Source: a virus (Duplodnaviria > Heunggongvirae > Uroviricota > Caudoviricetes). Taken from it: a DNA stretch of 64,000 nucleotides. The translations under genes were made by a program, and so were the position numbers. Each line of letters opens with the position of its first letter. Within the stretch, counting starts at the first letter, position 1. A model generated the notes under the pieces. The model saw only the letters and a program-made list of their open reading frames with translations, did no database searches and was not told where the DNA came from. The DNA lies in the IMG/VR virus record IMGVR_UViG_3300028888_005256; one strand, written 5' to 3'. Positions 44,510-57,634 of the stretch are shown one piece after another.

Positions 44510-45496
44510 CTATTCATAAAGTCTTTTAAGAGACTCTTGTTCTTTTGAGAGAATTGCTCTCATCTGCTCAATGCTCTCTTTGTACTCTTTTCTTGTGCAG
44601 CCAACTTCTTTGCAGATGTCGGTTAGTTTTTTATTTGATGATGAGTGAATAGACCAGATTTTTCTTTGCTGCGGTGTAAACTGCTTCTTAGCATTGCTAA
44701 TTGCTGTTTCAAGAATTTTTTTGTCTAGTGAGCGAAGATACTGTTCTTCAGGATCAATTACAACTTGAGCCTGAGAATTTTGATACACCATTGCATCTGA
44801 GAAGTCTTTGTGATCGTCAGTCTCATAATTCGAAAGAGTGACTTCATTACAAACACGAGAATAGCTGTCTCGGAGAATGTCTCTGTTCTTCGACATCAAG
44901 TAACCATTCAAGCAAGTCCAGAACTTCCATTTGTCTTTTGAAATCGTTTTCTTTGCAACTTCTTTGAGATGACTTTTTACTGTATCGAGTTCTTCAACTG
45001 ATTCTGCTTCAACACTTCGAATGCGTTCAAGATGAACTGAGTCAATAGCCTTTGAGAAAGTCTCATACATATCAATAAGATAATCTGACAAATCAAGACC
45101 CTTGATATTGTGCTCAAAAATCTTATTCTGCAAAAGTTTTCTCTGAGCAAGAATTGTATACTTGTACCTCTCAAAAAGAACTTCAATTGCAGCCTTTCGA
45201 ATTGCATCAGAACCGTATTTGATACGGTCTAAAACCTGATAGTCTGTTGCGTCTTTCAGCTGTGCTTTAGTGTTAAAAGAATTATGCACAATCGGGAACA
45301 AAGGATAGACTTTCTTGCCCTGCCCCTTTTCAAAAGCTGCATTTACATTAAAGTCAATTGTTTCGTTTACACTTTCCGCTAGAAATTTCATTCGTTCAAT
45401 ACACCTCGATGAATAATAAGAGAATTTTTGTCTTTCTAAATAAGATAAGATTTGCGTTAAAGTTTTTTGAATTTTACACCATTCAGTGCAAGCCAC
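44510..45496 (-). CDS. sigma-70-family RNA polymerase sigma factor (true start possibly 45391)
   Basis: region 2-like AAIEVLFERY...DLSDYLIDMYETFSKAI...KFWT.L...RDILR; region 4-like FTPQQRKIW...LTDICKEVGCT. Confidence 0.7.
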   Translation of the reverse strand: MACTEWCKIQKTLTQILSYLERQKFSYYSSRCIERMKFLAESVNETIDFNVNAAFEKGQGKKVYPLFPIVHNSFNTKAQLKDATDYQVLDRIKYGSDAIRKAAIEVLFERYKYTILAQRKLLQNKIFEHNIKGLDLSDYLIDMYETFSKAIDSVHLERIRSVEAESVEELDTVKSHLKEVAKKTISKDKWKFWTCLNGYLMSKNRDILRDSYSRVCNEVTLSNYETDDHKDFSDAMVYQNSQAQVVIDPEEQYLRSLDKKILETAISNAKKQFTPQQRKIWSIHSSSNKKLTDICKEVGCTRKEYKESIEQMRAILSKEQESLKRLYE

Positions 45497-45960
45497 TTTG
45501 CCATATTTACAAATCGATTGCTCATAGACTGAATAAGGGGCATTTTGTTACTGTCTTCGCCAACAAGCACTAATGTGTTAGAGCGATCTACTCCACTCTC
45601 AATGTCTTTGTTTACTCTTCTCTGGCAAAGCTTCCAATCATAAGAGTCTTTGAAGAGAAGCACTTCAACATTTGCATTTACAGAATCTGCAATTTCTTTT
45701 ACTGCTTTGTAGCTCTTGGGACTGAGTGTTGTAGCGCTGAAATACGCATCGTTGCCAGATTCGAGTGCATTTTTGAGTCTATTGTATGCAAGGTCCCAAA
45801 CTTCTTTATCTCTGGATTGGTCGGAGATATTGCCAGTCAATTCTTTTCGAATGTCATCTGGACAAATAACTTTAAGAGATGGATTTTGTGTTTTCATGAT
45901 TTCGCCATATCTAGATTTGCCAGAACCAGAAATGCCTACTGTAAGGTACACCGTGGACAT
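45457..45960 (-). CDS. polynucleotide kinase (AAA_33-type kinase domain)
   Basis: YLTVGISGSGKS, ICPDDIRKELTG, CQRR. Confidence 0.75.
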   Translation of the reverse strand: MSTVYLTVGISGSGKSRYGEIMKTQNPSLKVICPDDIRKELTGNISDQSRDKEVWDLAYNRLKNALESGNDAYFSATTLSPKSYKAVKEIADSVNANVEVLLFKDSYDWKLCQRRVNKDIESGVDRSNTLVLVGEDSNKMPLIQSMSNRFVNMAKWLALNGVKFKKL

Positions 45961-47601: not shown

Positions 47602-47632
47602 ATAAGGGCTCTAAACGAGCCCTTTTTATTTT
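47602..47632. terminator. intrinsic terminator
   Basis: AAGGGCTC-taaac-GAGCCCTT with A-run and T-run. Confidence 0.75.
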
Positions 47633-47651: not shown

Positions 47652-48203
47652 TTACTCTTTTACAATTCCAACTTGACAGCTTGCCATTACATCAAGTGCA
47701 TGCTCATGCTTCTCAGGAGTAAGTCCAGCACAAAGATTTGCAAGAACAGAAACTTTTACTTCAGGGAAAGCTGCTTTAAGAATAAGAGCATTTGAGATAA
47801 CACAAATGTCTGTACATGTACCACAAATTTCAATTTCAGCAGGGACACCAACTTTCAAGAACTCAAGAACAGTCTGAGGCAATGCCATTGAGCCAAATGT
47901 GTTCTTAACGTGATCCTTAAGGCGAGGATAGCCCTTGATAGCAGTCTCAATTTCTTCAACAAGACGCCATCCATCAGACTGGAAGATACAATGCTCTACA
48001 GGGAGATTCTCGCCTTCCTGAGTTTCAAGATAGCCCTGCGTATGAGAATCAAGAGTGCAAACAATAGGATAGCCCTTTTCTTTGTAGTCTTCGATCTTCT
48101 TTACAATGCCTGGTACAATTTTTTCTGCATCTTTATTTGCTAAGCTGCCTGTTACAAAATCTTTCTGCATGTCGACAACGACAAGAATTTTAGACTTCAT
48201 CAT
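47652..48203 (-). CDS. pncA: nicotinamidase / isochorismatase-family cysteine hydrolase
   Basis: VVVDMQKDF, DSH, EHC, KNTFGS, GTCTDICV. Confidence 0.85.
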   Translation of the reverse strand: MMKSKILVVVDMQKDFVTGSLANKDAEKIVPGIVKKIEDYKEKGYPIVCTLDSHTQGYLETQEGENLPVEHCIFQSDGWRLVEEIETAIKGYPRLKDHVKNTFGSMALPQTVLEFLKVGVPAEIEICGTCTDICVISNALILKAAFPEVKVSVLANLCAGLTPEKHEHALDVMASCQVGIVKE

Positions 48204-48218
48204 ATAAAATATTCTCCT

Positions 48219-48836
48219 TTATTCTTCATATAGCTCTTTCTTAGAAGATGTCAATTCTGCAATTGAGTTCCTTGAAAGCTGACCAAGATTGAATCCGTAG
48301 TTATTCCACAAATCAATTGATTTCTGCAAGAAGCTTCTTTTTGACTCTGCAAGATTTACAGCTGTATGGAGAGCTGAGTATTCTTTCCTGTACTTAACTC
48401 TTACAAGACGCTCAATCTCATCTTTTGAAAGCCACTTGTTCTTTGCTTTGTCGTCAGTGTTTACTTCTCTTGCGACTTCTACGTACTTCACATCCATCCA
48501 ATCCTGGAGGACATCTGTTGCATCTTGCTTGTCCCATCTGTTCTGCTCGTAAAGAGCTACAAGAGCAAGCATGATTTTTGCATGAGAAGAAAGTGCATAA
48601 TTTAACTTATCAAGAGTTGGCGCAGCAGAACCGTCAAACAAAAGTTTCTGATCCATTTTTTGAATCTGGTCAGTAACAAATGCAATAAACACTTTCTCTG
48701 CCTTTTCCATGTCCTGCTTTACAGGAGACTCTGACAAAATCACATCTGCAGCTTCAAGAGCACTTTTCTCTGAAGGCTTCTTTTCCTCGACTTTTTCGAG
48801 GAATTCATTATCATCTGTTGTCTGAATTTGTCTCAT
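48219..48836 (-). CDS. helical protein, possibly UvsY-like recombination mediator
   Basis: KDEIERLV...SKRSFLQKSI....GFNLGQL loosely resembles the UvsY C-terminus. Confidence 0.35.
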   Translation of the reverse strand: MRQIQTTDDNEFLEKVEEKKPSEKSALEAADVILSESPVKQDMEKAEKVFIAFVTDQIQKMDQKLLFDGSAAPTLDKLNYALSSHAKIMLALVALYEQNRWDKQDATDVLQDWMDVKYVEVAREVNTDDKAKNKWLSKDEIERLVRVKYRKEYSALHTAVNLAESKRSFLQKSIDLWNNYGFNLGQLSRNSIAELTSSKKELYEE

Positions 48837-48852
48837 AAGAGAATATTAACAT

Positions 48853-49749
48853 TTATCTGTATGAATCTATGATAGACTTGATTTTTTTGAATGCGGTTTC
48901 CCAGCTTATGTCTTGCTTTATTGGCTTGAAGTCTTCTTTAAGCAAATCGTCTAGACAAACTGTATCATTTACATCATAAACATTATCATAGTCTTTGGAT
49001 GCAGGACAATTGCTCTGAAGAACTGGCAAATGTGCGTCTAAATATTGAAGTAGTTTTAATGGCAATTGTCCGTCTGTGTATTCCGACTTTACAAACGGAA
49101 CTAAGCCTACATGACATTTCTTTAGCTCATCATATATGAGCTTTTGATCCATGAACTCACAAAGCTCTATATTAGAATCTTTTAGAGGAAATTCTTCTAT
49201 CTCGTTGAGACCGATAAGTTTGATAGACCAATCTGGGTTTGCAACAGCAATTTTATGCAGCACATCAAGATCAATTTTGCCTACTTGACCAATATAAACA
49301 GCTGTTTTCTTGCTGTACTTCTCTGAAAGAACGAAATCATGAATCTCGCAGCCATTCGGAATAAAGAAAGAGTTTTTATTTAATGAGATTGCGTCTTCAT
49401 ATAAGACTTTTGCACTACAAGTAACTGCGTCTGCAATCTTCATAGTAGGAACATCAAAATCTTTCGTTGACAGCTCACTATAATTCCATCTGTCTGTTCT
49501 GTCATAAATAATTGAGCAATTATGTTTTTTAAGAAATTCTAAAAAGAATGGTGAAAAAGAGGGCCTAGACAGAAGCACTACAGCATCTTTTAAGTATTCT
49601 AGCAAAGACAAAGCATTTGCTTCTGTATGAATCTCTGCAAAAATGTAATCTTCGCTAGAGTACCTCTGCTCTAAAAACTTCTTAAGTCTAGCTCTACGAT
49701 AGTAGTCTTGCCCAGTCACTTTCTCTGCGAAATGAAGCACTTTTTTCAA
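48853..49749 (-). CDS. GT-B glycosyltransferase (GT4-like)
   Basis: IIYDRTD, ADAVTCSAKVL, IPNGC, VYIG, VGLVPF...PLKLLQYL..LPVL. Confidence 0.85.
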   Translation of the reverse strand: MKKVLHFAEKVTGQDYYRRARLKKFLEQRYSSEDYIFAEIHTEANALSLLEYLKDAVVLLSRPSFSPFFLEFLKKHNCSIIYDRTDRWNYSELSTKDFDVPTMKIADAVTCSAKVLYEDAISLNKNSFFIPNGCEIHDFVLSEKYSKKTAVYIGQVGKIDLDVLHKIAVANPDWSIKLIGLNEIEEFPLKDSNIELCEFMDQKLIYDELKKCHVGLVPFVKSEYTDGQLPLKLLQYLDAHLPVLQSNCPASKDYDNVYDVNDTVCLDDLLKEDFKPIKQDISWETAFKKIKSIIDSYR

Positions 49750-50234
49750 AATACTGTCTCTTTCGTAATAATGCTTGTATTGAACGGAAGAGGACCAGTT
49801 GGATCGATCTCCTCTACTTCAGCAGACTGGAAAAGTGCTTTTAAAAGCTCAATTTGGTCTTTATCCATTGAGCCTTTGTCTATAAGAATTTTTTTCAAAT
49901 TTTTAAGTTTTGGAACTTGGTCAAAGGGGAATGATGACAGATTGTCTACATAAATCCAGCTTTCTTCAGTATTGATCTCTTCTACAGTGGGCCATCTATC
50001 AGCTAAAATATGTTCACCACAGAATAGCACAGCCGGAACATCAGACAAGTCGGAAACTATGAATTTTGCAAGTACTTGTTTTCCTGCATAATAAGACTTA
50101 ATGTAATTTCTCAAGTCTAATGGCATCTCTTCGTCACTTATGAAAGTGATAGAGTCACCAGACGAGAAAAACTCAATAGCGGGTAATACAAAAACATCAC
50201 CCTTCAAGAATGTTTTATATAAAGAATTAGCCAA
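49746..50234 (-). CDS. hypothetical protein in the radical SAM operon
   Basis: 162 aa; 4-bp overlap with the glycosyltransferase start. Confidence 0.65.
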   Translation of the reverse strand: MANSLYKTFLKGDVFVLPAIEFFSSGDSITFISDEEMPLDLRNYIKSYYAGKQVLAKFIVSDLSDVPAVLFCGEHILADRWPTVEEINTEESWIYVDNLSSFPFDQVPKLKNLKKILIDKGSMDKDQIELLKALFQSAEVEEIDPTGPLPFNTSIITKETVF

Positions 50235-50248
50235 AGTTTCTCTCCATT

Positions 50249-52192
50249 TTAGCCAAGAGGATTATAGAATCTATTACAGTCTGTATGCTTGTAGTAACAA
50301 TTTTTGTAAAGAGTCTTGCATTCAGAGTATACATTAATGCATTCAGCGTATTTTCTCCAGCATTCTGTTGTGTAGTCTTTTCTGTAGCATTCAGTATAGA
50401 AATTTATGCACTCTTTATAATAGTACGTACAGTTGCCGTAATACTGAAGATGAATACAATTAGCATACTTCACATGCGTATAGCATTCAGGGTACACCAT
50501 GTAGCAGTCAGAGTATACTGTATTTTCTCTCCAGACATAATGATTCCTGTTAAGATATCCTTGACTAAGTCCAGCACCTGTGGTCTTAGTAGAACAGTTA
50601 CAGTTGCAGTCATAGTCTGAGCAGTCAACGAAACATGCCCAATAACAATCACGTGATGCGACAGATCTGCCGCTCCAATGTGTACCAAAAGTAGCAACAT
50701 TGCTTGTTTGACAATGATAGGGTGTGCCTCTCGAAACAACAGGACAGTCAGTCTCTAAGAGCGAGCCCCACAGATTCCCACTCCATGAAGCATAACTAGT
50801 TTGCTGCGGTGTGGTGTACTCGATCCAGTCATTAGTACTGCCGTATGCCTTTGAATAAGCTTCTCTGTAATGATACTGATCAGAGCTCAAAAAACTAGAT
50901 GCTACTGTATTGTACTTTTGCTTATAAGTTGTTTTAGGGTCAGACCAAAATGCATAAGAATTATATTTTGTGGGAGAAAGATTATTTGCAGAGAGACTCA
51001 GATCTTGCGTATAGCCCGTAGCCTTATAGACTACAGAGCCAGTTTTGTCTATGTCATTTCTTGCGCTCACACAGTCAGTACAGTCATAAGTGTTTGTAGC
51101 TCTTGTTGTTCGATTTGAGAGCATTGTATCAGCTTCAGCTGAGCCAAATGTGTTGTTTAACTCAGATTTTGTAGAAAATGCTTTAGTACTGTTTCCATTC
51201 TTCCAATAGGCAGCAGAACATTCTTGATGCTGTGAATTTGTCACTTCATCAGATATTTTATATGATGTTGTGTTAGAGCCAGCTCTGTAAAAATGACCCA
51301 TGTCTGCAGTAGTCAGACCTGTTCCTGCAGAATTGAAGTCTGTAGACCTTGCTGCGTAATACTTTACGTATTTGTAGTCGCCTGAGCCAGAAGCTGGAAC
51401 ATCTGCTGCTTGTGAAATAGTTGGATTCGGCGGATTTCCCCATTCAGGTGCTTTGTCTTCATTGTACTTTTTAGTAGGTATAAGACTATTATCAATAGCT
51501 GGATAATTTTTATAAAGTCTACCACTGGAAATATTTGAACTAACAGAGCTTCCATTTTTCAATGTTATGTTTGTAGGACCGTTTCCGTCTAATTCAAGTC
51601 CGCCATCTGCTGTGTTTTTCCAGAAGGGCATTGACTCATAGTCACCTTTATTATCATTCGCAGTGTCAAAGTTTTGCACATACGCATTGTTTACTTTTAT
51701 TGCAGTGCAGTCGCCTTGTCTTTTCTCAACATGTCCTGCAGAATCTTCAGATGAGTAAGATGGCCTTATAGCAGTACACACCTTATCACCACCAGCAGTA
51801 CAGTCACAATCGAAGTCTTTAGAGGAGTACATAGACTGGTCTAGTCTATAAATTGTGCCTGATGGTACAGTAACTCCATTCTGCAATACTGCGTTTTGAG
51901 CTTTGAGTTTATTGTACGGCAACACTGTTACTGAAGATTGTGTCTTTGGGAAATTGCTATTTCCTGCATCAGCAGAGTTCATTTTCAGAGTAGTCTTGCC
52001 ATCTTTAAGAAGACGAGCATATAATGTGTGTTTCACATTGCTGTCATCTACGTACTCGACTTTAAGGTACTTACCGCCCTCACTTTTTACATCATCTGTA
52101 GAAGTCCAGAGCGGCACAATTACTGTCTCACCAGTCGCAGTACCACTATCATTCAAGACTTTAAGTATTAAATTTTTGCTGTATCTGCTCAT
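50249..52192 (-). CDS. 647-aa Ser/Thr/Tyr/Cys-rich protein with C-terminal periodic Cys repeats; candidate radical SAM substrate
   Basis: 4-bp ATGA overlap with the rSAM gene; CxC clusters; 11 (Y/H)x(D/E/N)C units at the C-terminus. Confidence 0.8.
   Translation of the reverse strand: MSRYSKNLILKVLNDSGTATGETVIVPLWTSTDDVKSEGGKYLKVEYVDDSNVKHTLYARLLKDGKTTLKMNSADAGNSNFPKTQSSVTVLPYNKLKAQNAVLQNGVTVPSGTIYRLDQSMYSSKDFDCDCTAGGDKVCTAIRPSYSSEDSAGHVEKRQGDCTAIKVNNAYVQNFDTANDNKGDYESMPFWKNTADGGLELDGNGPTNITLKNGSSVSSNISSGRLYKNYPAIDNSLIPTKKYNEDKAPEWGNPPNPTISQAADVPASGSGDYKYVKYYAARSTDFNSAGTGLTTADMGHFYRAGSNTTSYKISDEVTNSQHQECSAAYWKNGNSTKAFSTKSELNNTFGSAEADTMLSNRTTRATNTYDCTDCVSARNDIDKTGSVVYKATGYTQDLSLSANNLSPTKYNSYAFWSDPKTTYKQKYNTVASSFLSSDQYHYREAYSKAYGSTNDWIEYTTPQQTSYASWSGNLWGSLLETDCPVVSRGTPYHCQTSNVATFGTHWSGRSVASRDCYWACFVDCSDYDCNCNCSTKTTGAGLSQGYLNRNHYVWRENTVYSDCYMVYPECYTHVKYANCIHLQYYGNCTYYYKECINFYTECYRKDYTTECWRKYAECINVYSECKTLYKNCYYKHTDCNRFYNPLG
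50252..50515 (-). repeat. protein-level tandem repeat, Cys every 7 or 9 residues
   Basis: YSDC YPEC YANC YGNC YKEC YTEC YTTEC YAEC YSEC YKNC HTDC. Confidence 0.9.
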
Positions 52193-53379
52193 TTGTCCTC
52201 AGTAGCTGAACAGTCACACTCCTCAATAGTAACGTCTTTCTCTGTAAGAACATTTTCTGGTCTGGCTGGTGCAGGCTCTATAGGAGAGGCGCCCATTGAA
52301 GCAGCAATGAGGTCTGTTCTGTGTCTGTCAAACTCAATATATTCTTTCATATAAGTATAAAAGTTTATATAGTTAGTACAGTTGGCTCTTCTCTGGTCAT
52401 CTGTAAGGACAGCACAAATACCACCACACATATTTTTTACAGGACAAGTATCGCATTCTGGAAGCAGTTTGAAATTCTCTTTTTTCATGAGCTCTGCGTA
52501 GGTCTCAGAGTCTACTACACTTCGTCTTTCACAATCTTGAACACATCTGTATTCTTTTCCTGAAAGGCCGACAGTCAATGACTCAAATGTTGCGCAGGGA
52601 TACTCAGCTTTATCACCAAATAGAAGATAATTGAGAGCTCTGTCTTGGTCTGTAGAGAACATAAAACGAACTTTTGGCCTATGCAATCTGTCAGTAACGC
52701 TATCTGCCATCTGTCCAAAAGTGTAATCAAGGAACTCATTGTGCTTATTGATGTCTGGCATAAAGTCTTTTGTCCATTCATCAGTCTCTCTAAAGATGGA
52801 CCAAGAAACTTCTACTGGGAACTCAATGACATTATCTGCGACATTTGTCCAGTAGTCTATCTGCTTATCAAGATCGCAGCTTTCAGAAGTAAGGACAATG
52901 TGGAAAGAGCCAAAACAGTCATTAAGCTTTAAGAGCTTGATTGCTTCAACCTGCTCTGAGTTCGCAATCAAAAAATCTTTGCCACGAAGTGACTGACCTG
53001 AGCCATCATGAGAGATATTTACGCTTACTTTATGCTTTATGAAAAACTTCGCTTTCTCTTTTGTAAGAAGAGATCCATTTGTAATAAGAATAAGATGCGC
53101 ATACGGAAATTTCGCTCTTGCATACTCTACAACTTTTTGAAGAGTTTCATAGTTTGCAAGGGGCTCACCGCCCCAGAACTTGATGCCGCCTGCATAGTCT
53201 GGTGCTACACGTCTAAGAGCTTTGTCAAGAATATCTGGATTAAAGTCGGCTACTTTTCCAGTATGTCCATTGTGACCATCAATGTAACCGCCGAAGCAGT
53301 ACTTGCATTTCATATTACAGATTGCATTTTCCATGCAAATCTCAATTATAGAAGGGTATCTTTTAAAATCTCTGTTCAT
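52189..53379 (-). CDS. radical SAM enzyme with SPASM domain (anSME/peptide-maturase-like)
   Basis: CNMKCKYC (CxxxCxxC), FWGGEPL, ITNG, ISHDG; auxiliary C...GKEYRC and CDTCPVKNMCGGIC...C. Confidence 0.92.
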   Translation of the reverse strand: MNRDFKRYPSIIEICMENAICNMKCKYCFGGYIDGHNGHTGKVADFNPDILDKALRRVAPDYAGGIKFWGGEPLANYETLQKVVEYARAKFPYAHLILITNGSLLTKEKAKFFIKHKVSVNISHDGSGQSLRGKDFLIANSEQVEAIKLLKLNDCFGSFHIVLTSESCDLDKQIDYWTNVADNVIEFPVEVSWSIFRETDEWTKDFMPDINKHNEFLDYTFGQMADSVTDRLHRPKVRFMFSTDQDRALNYLLFGDKAEYPCATFESLTVGLSGKEYRCVQDCERRSVVDSETYAELMKKENFKLLPECDTCPVKNMCGGICAVLTDDQRRANCTNYINFYTYMKEYIEFDRHRTDLIAASMGASPIEPAPARPENVLTEKDVTIEECDCSATEDK

Positions 53380-53398
53380 TAATAAATATTAACAGAGC

Positions 53399-53428
53399 AA
53401 AAAAAGCTGCAGAAAAACTGCAGCTCAT
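53399..53428 (-). terminator. intrinsic terminator between 53450-54061 and the rSAM operon
   Basis: AGCTGCAG-aaaaa-CTGCAGCT with A-run on its left. Confidence 0.75.
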
Positions 53429-56377: not shown

Positions 56378-56459
56378 AAAAATTTAAAATTAATAATTAA
56401 TAGCACGCCAGTCCAACCAATTAATGCGAGTCGTCTCCATTAATAGTTGACGAATTCGT
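56378..56459 (+). repeat. dispersed bipartite element copy E7 (core 56437-56458)
   Basis: AATTAATAATTAATAGC...GTCGTCTCCATTAATAGTTGACGAATTCGT. Confidence 0.9.
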
Positions 56460-56479
56460 TTTCAGTTAATATAGATTTT

Positions 56480-57634
56480 ATGATGAAAGAAGATTTGCTT
56501 ATAGAATTTATTGAGTCTCATTCAGACTGGAAGGAGCAGCTTAAAAAAGCGCCTTATTTTCTCAAGATCAAGAATTCTGAAACACATCCAAATTATTGGA
56601 TGCTCGCTTATAATCTTTTTGACTCAGATTTCACAAATGACATTACAAAGACTTGCAGAGGGATTGTTCTAGACATCGATCCCGATACAAATAAAGTTCT
56701 TGGAATTGTAAATTATGCAATGTCTAAGTTTTTCAACTATGGAGATCCAAACTGCGCTCCGATAGATTGGACTACTGCAAAAGTTCTTTCTAAGAAAGAC
56801 GGTCAGCTTATTAGGGTTTCAAAATACAAAGGTGAGATTATCTGGTGCACTAACGGTGCATTTGGTCTTAATACGCCTGTAGATTTCACAGATGATAAAG
56901 TGCATGATTATGTAAGTCTTGTAAAGCTTGCTTTGAACAATGATTTAAGTTGGATAGACAGAATTCCAGAGGGCGTTACAGTCTTTATGGAACTTTGTTC
57001 TCCATACAATCGAATCATTTGTAGATACTCTGATGTGAAGATGTGGCTTCTTGGTGCTCGTAGTAATGTCAGCCCGTATTCTGAAATTATGCCTGAAGAC
57101 ATAAAAGCTCAGATAGACATTCCTCTAGATATCCCTGAGTCATACGATTTGCATAGCATAGAGTCAGTTCTCAAAGAGCTAGACAAATTCGTCGGCTACG
57201 AGCAAGAGGGTGTTGTTGTAAGAGATGCAGCATTCAACAGAATCAAAGTAAAGTCGAAAGACTACTTACGAATTCATTATATGCTTGGAGAAAATGGCAT
57301 AACGCAAGACTCTATTCTTACTGCTATTTTGACAGATTCTACAGATGATTTGCTTGAGTTTGACCCGTCTTTAAGCAAGAATATTGATGCCCTTAAAAAA
57401 GACATTATAGCATGTGAAGACAACTTGCGAGAATTATTCTCTATAGTCAAAGAAAAATTTGATGAGTGCAATAATGATCGAAAGACTTTTGCTCAATGGG
57501 CTATCTCTCAAGACAACACAAAAACTTTGTTCAGACTTCTAGATTGCAAAGATGTAGAAGACATTATAAAAGAAAACCGAGAAAGAATGAAGAATTCTAA
57601 AAAGCCTACTAAGGAGCTTTACAATTGCAAATAG
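56480..57634 (+). CDS. RNA ligase (T4 Rnl1-like nucleotidyltransferase); ATG 56480 preferred over TTG 56447 inside the repeat
   Basis: CRGIVL, KFFNYG, motif I KKDG, FMELCSP.NRII, EGVVVRD, RIKVKS..Y. Confidence 0.85.
   Translation: MMKEDLLIEFIESHSDWKEQLKKAPYFLKIKNSETHPNYWMLAYNLFDSDFTNDITKTCRGIVLDIDPDTNKVLGIVNYAMSKFFNYGDPNCAPIDWTTAKVLSKKDGQLIRVSKYKGEIIWCTNGAFGLNTPVDFTDDKVHDYVSLVKLALNNDLSWIDRIPEGVTVFMELCSPYNRIICRYSDVKMWLLGARSNVSPYSEIMPEDIKAQIDIPLDIPESYDLHSIESVLKELDKFVGYEQEGVVVRDAAFNRIKVKSKDYLRIHYMLGENGITQDSILTAILTDSTDDLLEFDPSLSKNIDALKKDIIACEDNLRELFSIVKEKFDECNNDRKTFAQWAISQDNTKTLFRLLDCKDVEDIIKENRERMKNSKKPTKELYNCK

Follow-up and report, generated by a model that had tools for sequence, protein, structure and literature searches.

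A radical SAM/SPASM-type enzyme encoded with a large cysteine-repeat protein in a giant gut phage, a candidate system for thioether cross-linking of a virion protein

Closest described systems

The window analysed here is a 64,000-nucleotide stretch of DNA (IMG/VR virus record IMGVR_UViG_3300028888_005256), part of a 326.5-kb contig of an uncultured giant phage from a sheep gut metagenome. On its minus strand, the gene for a 396-residue radical S-adenosylmethionine (SAM) enzyme of the SPASM type overlaps the gene for a 647-residue Cys-rich protein, which we propose to be its substrate. To our knowledge, the described cases of radical SAM cross-linking concern short peptides and the two cellular proteins QhpC and CrpA, and none concerns a virus particle. 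No relevant description of a phage fibre in connection with radical SAM, SPASM or thioether was found in the literature searched. Within that literature it holds, as an earlier reading of the window from its letters alone (the sequence-only reading) had guessed, that no characterised phage system has such a layout.

SPASM enzymes install ranthionine links in whole proteins in two cases, QhpD on QhpC and CrpC on the 28.8-kDa CrpA (PMC13692751). CrpC of Methanococcus voltae (TIGR04463) is, like the phage enzyme, a seven-Cys SPASM enzyme with a whole Cys-rich protein as its substrate (PMC13692751). Compared by the description in that paper, CrpA and the 647-residue protein both have a conserved N-terminal domain and C-terminal Cys repeats beside acidic or amide residues. 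As here, the CrpC/CrpA cluster resembles those of RiPPs (peptides made by the ribosome and modified after translation) without an obvious protease or exporter.

On the other hand, CrpC has a RiPP recognition element (RRE) and CrpA a leader-like N-terminus, whereas the phage enzyme has no room for an N-terminal RRE, because its cluster motif begins at residue 21; the equivalent residues align at 86-121 in RRE-bearing NCBIfam models. CrpA has a 17-residue repeat with C-x-x-Q/D, instead of 7- or 9-residue units with D, E or N right before Cys in a protein of 647 residues, and it comes from an archaeon instead of a phage. Of the 55 NCBIfam matches of the enzyme, the best 25 were compared, all of them far below cut-off, and they do not include TIGR04463.

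The Cys-to-Asp/Glu thioethers that QhpD (TIGR03906) forms lie in the subunit of a protein and not in a peptide (PMC13692751). It uses an RRE and a leader to place three links in an enzyme subunit of ~110 residues, and the match of the phage enzyme to it is confined to the generic core, at 57.6 bits where the cut-off is 453. CteB of the CteB/SCIFF system (PDB 5WGG, 5WHY) shares a full-length profile match (2.2e-30) and the seven-Cys SPASM arrangement with the phage enzyme. PapB/freyrasin has repeated motifs of Cys with Asp, Glu or Asn as here, freyrasin containing six CX3D rings. However, the substrates of PapB and CteB are short exported peptides bearing leaders, their acceptor spacing differs from that of the 647-residue protein, and CteB, as well as QhpD, carries an N-terminal leader-binding RRE that the phage enzyme does not have. 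The respective scores and cut-offs are 68.9 and 340 bits for PapB, and 44.9 and 425 bits for SCIFF.

The sulfatase-maturating enzyme anSME (PDB 4K36-4K39) is the best fold match, lacks an RRE and acts on large proteins, as proposed here, but its eighth auxiliary-cluster Cys and its sulfatase partner are both absent. The CXXX-repeat target system (TIGR04114/04115/04117) differs in that the spacing here is 7 or 9, not 4, and TIGR04115 is not among the best 25 matches either.

Two phage systems also bear likeness to the locus. In an alternating-Cys fibre family, such as gp028/gp030 of Achromobacter phage JWF, a SPASM-type phage enzyme accompanies a near-C-terminal motif with Cys after N, D, E or Q, and the short D-C-N-C-N-C run of the window protein resembles the runs of this family. 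Nevertheless, the window enzyme belongs to a separate clade, its gene precedes that of the target, the target is far larger with Tyr-rich units of 7 or 9 residues instead of period 2, and a ~300-residue partner common in that family is absent. The Campylobacter phages CP220 and CPt10 carry radical SAM genes that have been unexplained since 2010 (PMC2853527). Loci in the clade nearest to the window enzyme resemble their clusters, with 150-170-residue proteins that have Ser/Gly/Asn/Cys-rich tails, and the window enzyme matches these phages by tblastn. However, five to seven paralogous enzymes are encoded at each such locus, and the tblastn matches are limited to the N-terminal third.

The enzyme class and the formation of ranthionine in proteins are known already. 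What is new is a phage enzyme without an RRE, outside the clade of the alternating-Cys systems, that is paired with a 647-residue proposed target bearing a repeat of Tyr-x-[D/E/N]-Cys at 7 or 9 residues.

The enzyme, its proposed substrate and their relatives

The pair comprises the following features.
52189-53379, minus strand: 396-residue radical SAM enzyme (Pfam, alignment, profile and fold).
50249-52192, minus strand: 647-residue Cys-motif protein rich in Ser, Thr, Tyr and Asn, proposed substrate (open reading frame, composition and Cys pattern).
51818-52192, minus strand: N-terminal domain of this protein, residues 1 to ~125, with the motif P-L-[FW]-T..D-V...Y-x-R (BLASTP).
51776-51808, minus strand: C-x-C-x(2-7)-C motif (Cys129, Cys131 and Cys139), invariant in 5/5 aligned partners.
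50594-50647, minus strand: Cys cluster, residues 516-533, with a short D-C-N-C-N-C ladder (sequence inspection).
50252-50515, minus strand: C-terminal repeat of 11 units [Y/H]-x-[D/E/N]-C, spacing 7 or 9 (Cys pattern and shuffles).

The enzyme matches the Pfam families Radical_SAM (PF04055, 3.2e-13, above the cut-off) and Fer4_12 (above threshold). Its CX3CX2C cluster motif (C21/C25/C28) and the GGEP of its SAM-binding motif (residues 70-73) are invariant across 18 sequences, the enzyme and 17 homologues. So are C262, G274, C279, C309, C312, C318 and C322 of the SPASM pattern, while C334 is nearly invariant. The arrangement fits the SPASM signature CX9-15GX4C ... CX2CX5CX3C ... C for two auxiliary [4Fe-4S] clusters, and three [4Fe-4S] sites are predicted in the enzyme. 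As no Cys of the family aligns with the extra upstream Aux-I Cys of anSME, its eighth auxiliary-cluster Cys, the family would have a seven-Cys arrangement with an open iron able to bind a substrate Cys. Such an arrangement has been discussed, for CteB-like enzymes and CrpC, as leaving an iron free for the substrate Cys (PMC13692751).

The family profile gave full-length matches to anSME (1.9e-30) and, as mentioned above, to the thioether synthase CteB. [quoted passage not shown] The Radical_SAM match, the seven-Cys SPASM-type C-terminal half and the fold agree with the radical SAM/SPASM identity claimed by the sequence-only reading. The C-terminal tail of the enzyme itself (52189-52230) ends with E-C-D-C, a [D/E]-Cys grammar like that of the proposed substrate, and Cys occurs in the tails of relatives as well; this tail may be a pseudo-substrate or a site of self-modification.

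The 647-residue protein contains 68 Ser, 64 Thr, 57 Tyr and 26 Cys and is also Asn-rich. This composition and the C-terminal repeat match the earlier description of a giant, Ser/Thr-rich protein with Cys/Tyr repeats. Directly before 23 of the 26 Cys (88%) stands D, E or N. The last 85 residues hold 11 Cys at spacings of 7, 9, 9, 7, 7, 9, 7, 7, 7 and 7. Each of the 11 comes right after D, E or N, a pattern seen in none of 100,000 shuffles, and 10 of them have Tyr (nine) or His (one) at -3. No tandem repeat was found in the DNA underlying the Tyr-x-[D/E/N]-Cys units, and thus the Cys pattern appears to be kept at the protein level. The longest alternating runs are C-N-C-N-C (three Cys, residues 529-533) and D-C-D-C; at the C-terminus or close to it, no alternating run reaches four Cys. 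No signal peptide was seen by eye. The protein matches no Pfam or PHROG family, no NCBIfam family at E<=0.1, and nothing by tblastn against 50,697 phage records, among which the 20 kb around the locus has no DNA match either.

Its sole close homologue, with 84% identity, is encoded on a contig of 2959 bp (L001) that has the same gene order. Between the two, the enzyme shows a ratio of nonsynonymous to synonymous substitution rates (dN/dS) of 0.06, whereas the middle part of the 647-residue protein shows 0.62, the latter as expected for a protein in contact with the host. The C-terminal repeat is 93.5% identical in amino acids and 96.7% in nucleotides.

More distant enzyme homologues were traced to contigs of three further lineages, with identities of 67% (L002/L003), 44% (L004/L005) and 43% (L006). 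In L001 and in all three of these lineages, the gene right after the enzyme gene encodes a Cys-rich protein with the N-terminal domain (BLASTP 6e-13 to L003 and 1e-5 to L006) and the CxC..C motif in common, and the two genes overlap or are at most 4 nt apart. The 194-residue forms of the partner end in a run such as C-N-C-Q-S-D-C-Q-C-N-C-C-C. The partners of the L004 and L006 enzymes have Cys motifs without a regular aromatic residue. A D/E/N-type residue precedes Cys in 72% of cases in the close-clade partners, against a background of 21%.

The genomic context of the pair was readable only in contigs long enough, namely L002/L003 and L004. There the pair is directly preceded by genes whose products match tail-fibre PHROGs, those of the 67% lineage being homologous to those of the 44% lineage. 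By these sequence comparisons, the pair of enzyme and partner is conserved over a wide divergence and in a fibre module. The 203-residue protein encoded upstream in the window was tried as a fibre and dropped, as it has no significant similarity to the fibre genes preceding the enzyme in L003 and L004.

The sequence-only reading had proposed a four-gene unit, in which genes for a 162-residue protein and a glycosyltransferase follow the pair. All four minus-strand open reading frames are present (52189-53379, 50249-52192, 49746-50234 and 48853-49749). Of their proposed co-occurrence, the part that stands is the enzyme with the Cys-rich gene, which recur together in L001 and the three further lineages. 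The glycosyltransferase and 162-residue genes recur only in near-identical relatives, so the unit of four is not supported as a system, and by gene content the conserved core is only the enzyme and the Cys-rich protein.

A scan of viral contigs with the single enzyme sequence found none, while a scan with the enzyme profile found relatives in 467 viral stretches at 24-39% identity; open reading frames were called in 80 loci kept of these. The enzymes of this wider family lie in tail-fibre modules. A protein with at least four alternating Cys (CxCxCxC) is encoded within 6 kb of the enzyme at 47 of the 80 loci, for which the chance expectation is far below one (Cys frequency ~1%). The run, for example NCNCDCNC, stands mostly at the end of a fibre or a small protein. 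It ends at most 7 residues from the C-terminus in 33 of 43 distinct proteins, and in the other 10 it is followed by at least 54, mostly ~170-190, residues. Among the 43, N, D, E or Q precedes Cys in 69% against a background of 21%, and 36 runs start with N-C. Two of the longer alternating-Cys proteins, when tested, matched tail-fibre PHROGs. In phage JWF, the enzyme gp030 is encoded inside the annotated fibre module, two genes after the alternating-Cys fibre gp028.

Several other features accompany these enzymes. An extension of ~180 residues starting with CFPAGT comes right after the Cys run in L010:2631-4082 (JWF gp028), L021, L027, L028, L034, L079 and L081. It is annotated as a Hint domain in JWF, and self-cleavage at such a Hint-type extension would leave the Cys run as the new C-terminus. 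A family of ~300-residue proteins, with 24 members in 23 viral loci (L017:3502-4335, L048:2296-3231 and L077:3840-4724, for example), is encoded between the Cys-run fibre and the radical SAM gene, but is absent from the window. Three members tested have no Pfam or PHROG match, and the protein may be a partner or chaperone. Small reading frames at 3.4-4.3 kb beside related enzymes in L035, L047, L051, L057 and L058 show other Cys periods, with C-T-T-[IV]-x-C units of period 6, in which five residues separate one Cys from the next, and C-N-x-[IV]-x-C units. Cys spacings of 2, 6 and 7/9 are found beside related enzymes, and the enzyme family thus goes with several spacings.

In a tree of 94 enzymes, the clade of the window enzyme (SH-aLRT support 97) groups with enzymes of loci with multiple radical SAM genes. 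In two of these, L008:1900-11800 and L009:4900-11750, five to seven paralogous radical SAM genes are interleaved with genes for 140-170-residue proteins. These small proteins share a K-L-A..H-T-H motif, and five of six continue into a Ser/Gly/Asn/Cys/His-rich tail that ends with Trp. In L007:698-9783, a 37%-identical homologue of the enzyme follows a fibre-like reading frame ending in C-R-D-C-N-D-N-G-D repeats; an integrase, two DNA methylases and CI-like repressors are encoded beside it, so the branch occurs in temperate phages, too.

Proposed modification and its alternatives

We propose that the enzyme modifies the [D/E/N]-Cys cysteines of the 647-residue protein, likeliest as thioether cross-links, and that the modified protein is probably part of the virion. 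We hold this proposal as a whole with moderate confidence. The observations behind it are the genes themselves, the family features of the enzyme, a pairing that is conserved, the grammar of the Cys sites and, in relatives, the context of fibre genes.

The 396-residue RRE-less enzyme would be made together with the 647-residue protein and act on its cysteines inside an anaerobic rumen host, whose cytoplasm is reduced, recognising Cys right after Asp, Glu or Asn. The likeliest product would be sulfur-to-carbon thioether links of the ranthionine type to Asp, Glu or Asn side chains, and the C-terminal 85 residues would become a string of ~eleven small rings. The modified protein would most likely serve as a fibre or host-contact component of the virion, in an anoxic reducing habitat where disulfides would be unreliable. 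Action of the enzyme on this protein, the chemistry and the virion location are what we infer.

A thioether is favoured because of the seven-Cys SPASM arrangement, the full-length similarity to CteB, the Cys grammar that is found also in non-aromatic targets, and the whole-protein precedents. In the repeat, each Cys is followed by the next D/E/N 6 or 8 residues on, and the C-terminal repeat could therefore form contiguous rings; the spacing of the links in QhpC is similar to this distance. A link of Cys to the adjacent preceding residue is conceivable as well. The anaerobic habitat is supported by the sheep gut source and by an anaerobic ribonucleotide reductase encoded in the window; small-share sequencing runs were left out of the habitat assignment.

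The sequence-only reading had suggested either a virion appendage or a large RiPP-like effector, of which the appendage is favoured by the fibre-adjacent pairs of relatives. The virion role is argued from these relatives because the 203-residue neighbour in the window has no detectable relative.

When a complex of residues 505-647 with the enzyme, SAM and three clusters was predicted, the score was 0.00 and the pLDDT of the partner 32-34, a result that counts neither way.

A number of results weigh against the proposal. The partner family is tiny, as a word-index search and an exhaustive HMMER search of 1.84 billion representatives each returned one homologue of the 647-residue protein, and a profile search with its N-terminal domain added one further cluster only; a scan of viral contigs with the same profile found none. 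In the repeat region, divergence from L001 is low at silent sites too (dS 0.03), so its dN/dS is uninformative on selection, and no constraint at the protein level is shown. The Atlas model of the 647-residue protein has a pLDDT of 0.27, unmodellable, and AlphaFold2 on its first 175 residues with a five-row alignment gave an unusable pLDDT of 39.

For the enzyme, Pfam SPASM (PF13186) gives no match even at E<=5, and TIGR04085 scores 19.5 bits, below its cut-off of 27; by these scores the SPASM domain is divergent. No cut-off of a curated NCBIfam family is approached. The best fold match, anSME (TM 0.60-0.67), is an oxidising rather than a cross-linking enzyme. In the tree, the window clade stands apart from a 75-row clade that holds nearly all enzymes of alternating-Cys loci, and its nearest clade consists of Campylobacter-phage-like clusters with multiple radical SAM genes. 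No relative of the upstream 203-residue protein was detected by Pfam, PHROG or tblastn of phage records, and no window neighbour is demonstrably a fibre. Finally, the enzyme class alone does not fix the reaction.

SPASM enzymes of the triceptide (3-CyFE), YhhB, AmcB and darobactin types make aromatic links, and the triceptide pattern is aromatic-X-X. The window enzyme could likewise link Tyr rings, in three-residue cyclophanes or by other C-C or C-O links at Tyr-x-[D/E/N], leaving the Cys to be structural or metal-binding. An aromatic residue indeed stands two before D/E/N in 10 of the 11 repeat units. YhhB (7e-11; 41.6 bits against 445), AmcB (4e-7; 29.4 against 425), DynA and WgkB are among the sub-threshold NCBIfam matches and are likewise without a long N-terminal extension, and ChlB is among the best fold matches. 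These NCBIfam matches are, however, limited to the generic N-terminal core and far under cut-off. Moreover, the [D/E/N]-Cys rule extends to 15 Cys outside the Tyr repeat, and no regular aromatic residue accompanies the Cys motifs of the partners in L004 and L006 or of the alternating-Cys fibre tails. We regard Tyr linking as improbable.

It is about equally doubtful that enzyme and protein are no pair at all, with the Cys binding metal or iron-sulfur clusters or forming disulfides after lysis, and the enzyme serving metabolism, nucleic-acid modification or another target. Many Cys-rich proteins beside radical SAM genes are metal binders (PMC13692751), and radical SAM genes without a known role are numerous in the Campylobacter-phage-like relatives. 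Nevertheless, the overlapping or near-overlapping pair is kept down to 43% enzyme identity, CxCxCxC proteins occur at 47 of the 80 loci against a chance expectation far below one, and profile similarity points to SPASM enzymes that modify proteins and peptides.

The same chemistry could also yield a product outside the virion, either an effector like a RiPP but very large or a protein that is directed at the host and set free by lysis, to which we give a similarly small chance. The pair directly follows fibre genes in L002/L003 and L004, the Cys motif forms the C-terminus of tail fibres in distant relatives, and inspection by eye shows no signal peptide in the 647-residue protein. Nor did Pfam and PHROG reveal a gene for a protease, a transporter or immunity in the unit. 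A free effector would fit the absence of structural homology for the 647-residue protein or its window neighbours (Pfam, PHROG, tblastn and the Atlas model) and the auxiliary look of the glycosyltransferase and isochorismatase-family genes in the unit. Of the two products considered in the sequence-only reading, the effector is the less favoured.

Oxidation by an anSME-like activity, turning selected Cys (or Ser) into formylglycine or other reactive aldehydes instead of cross-links, is the least probable of all, since its likeness in profile (tied with CteB) and full-length fold, the lack of an RRE in both enzymes, the large anSME substrates and two C/S-x-P/A-x-R strings in the 647-residue protein are met by the missing Aux-I Cys, NCBIfam scores of 43.7 bits against 349 (TIGR03942) and 31.7 against 441 (PRK13758), a near-chance number of such strings (~0.3 expected per such protein, by estimate), no sulfatase homology in Pfam or NCBIfam, and a conserved feature that is [D/E/N]-Cys and not a sulfatase motif.

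Returning to thioether cross-linking of a virion protein, a more specific version would have the rumen-phage enzyme turn a 72-kDa host-contact protein of the virion into a chain of thioether rings, with ~eleven rings plus staples in the body, which replaces disulfides and is possibly glycosylated. This version is possible but tentative. The weakest link of the proposal as a whole, an unlikely one, is that the neighbouring glycosyltransferase adds sugars to the Ser/Thr-rich body. Because the glycosyltransferase and the 162-residue gene recur only in near-identical relatives, this step is argued from the operon layout.

Neighbouring genes, expression signals and implications

The other genes and signals around the pair are as follows.
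53404-53426, minus strand: intrinsic-terminator-like hairpin with T-run at the end of the upstream gene (9 pairs, 5 of them GC).
53385-53393, minus strand: GTTAATATT motif, 5 nt before the ATG of the radical SAM gene (copy enrichment and ATG proximity).
49746-50234, minus strand: 162-residue protein (open reading frame; dN/dS 0.07).
48853-49749, minus strand: 298-residue putative glycosyltransferase of probable GT-B fold, TuaH/GT4-like (TuaH 6e-14; Atlas model).
48842-48850, minus strand: GTTAATATT again, with the ATG of the 205-residue reading frame 5 nt downstream (motif copy).
48219-48836, minus strand: 205-residue open reading frame upstream of the next terminator (calling of open reading frames).
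47652-48203, minus strand: isochorismatase-family hydrolase gene, the last before the terminator (PF00857, 2.3e-24; PHROG 19305).
47604-47624, minus strand: bidirectional terminator-like hairpin, the first one downstream of the unit (hairpin scan).

The hairpin at 53404-53426 was located within the terminator that the sequence-only reading had placed at 53399-53428, upstream of the unit, and the start motifs it had claimed upstream and downstream were both found as GTTAATATT. Five copies of GTTAATATT occur in the window (11394, 24029, 28719, 48842 and 53385) against 0.7 expected, a number that none of 100 shuffles reached. Four of the five lie 5-11 nt upstream of an ATG without a Shine-Dalgarno sequence. 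GTTAATATT likely marks a class of phage promoter that yields leaderless or near-leaderless mRNAs. Of two ATGA overlaps that had been claimed, the one between the enzyme and 647-residue genes is present, but the junction of the 162-residue and glycosyltransferase genes is TTGA with a TTG start. An alternative start of the glycosyltransferase is a GTG three codons after the TTG. As the next minus-strand terminator comes only at 47604-47624, the unit may extend to the 205-residue reading frame and the isochorismatase-family gene, which may share one transcription unit.

For the 298-residue protein, a GT-B fold is suggested by its Atlas model (pLDDT 0.82; TM 0.80-0.87 to TuaH/GT1 clusters). Its TuaH match scores 51.7 bits against a cut-off of 550, and PF13692 (Glyco_trans_1_4) scores 21.5 bits, just below 27. 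The 162-residue gene is under strong purifying selection, as judged by the above dN/dS against L001, and its product gives a weak leucine-rich-repeat-like lead. No tblastn match in phage records was found for the glycosyltransferase, the 203-residue or the 162-residue protein. The glycosyltransferase, 162-residue, 205-residue and isochorismatase-family genes recur in none of 90 loci, except for the 162-residue gene in L001, and they do not appear to belong to the conserved core because they do not recur beyond near-identical relatives.

A contig of 2473 nt from a bovine gut RNA library is ~93% identical to window positions 48025-50496 and spans five genes of the block, running from the isochorismatase-family gene into the 3' end of the 647-residue gene. 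Identical short contigs are present in a sheep gut RNA library. The locus thus occurs in sheep and bovine gut metatranscriptome libraries of two studies; contigs from RNA libraries cannot prove transcription, and the bovine contig shows synteny in a close relative only.

The window also encodes a tail sheath protein, SbcC, a helicase and a T4 gp63-like RNA ligase. The region is flanked by a polynucleotide-kinase-like gene (45457-45960) and the T4 gp63-like RNA ligase/tail-fibre attachment gene (56447-57634); a pairing of the two for RNA repair is possible, as is a role of the ligase in attaching fibres.

The window adds a divergent branch of enzymes with a simple, testable rule, namely Cys right after Asp, Glu or Asn. 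The 647-residue protein, with 23 of its 26 Cys in such sites, is a good test case for the processing of whole proteins without an RRE. If the more specific version of the proposal is true, this protein would exceed every known RiPP-like substrate in size and be the first phage-fibre part with enzymatic cross-links, and its ring chain would stand in for disulfides in an anoxic, reducing and protease-rich habitat. Stapling of host-recognition parts by phages with thioethers that resist reduction, if real, would be a new principle of virion stabilisation in anoxic habitats such as gut and rumen, and would open a new source of scaffolds made of very large cross-linked proteins. The long-puzzling radical SAM genes of many phages, those of the Campylobacter CP220 group among them, might be explained by it as well.

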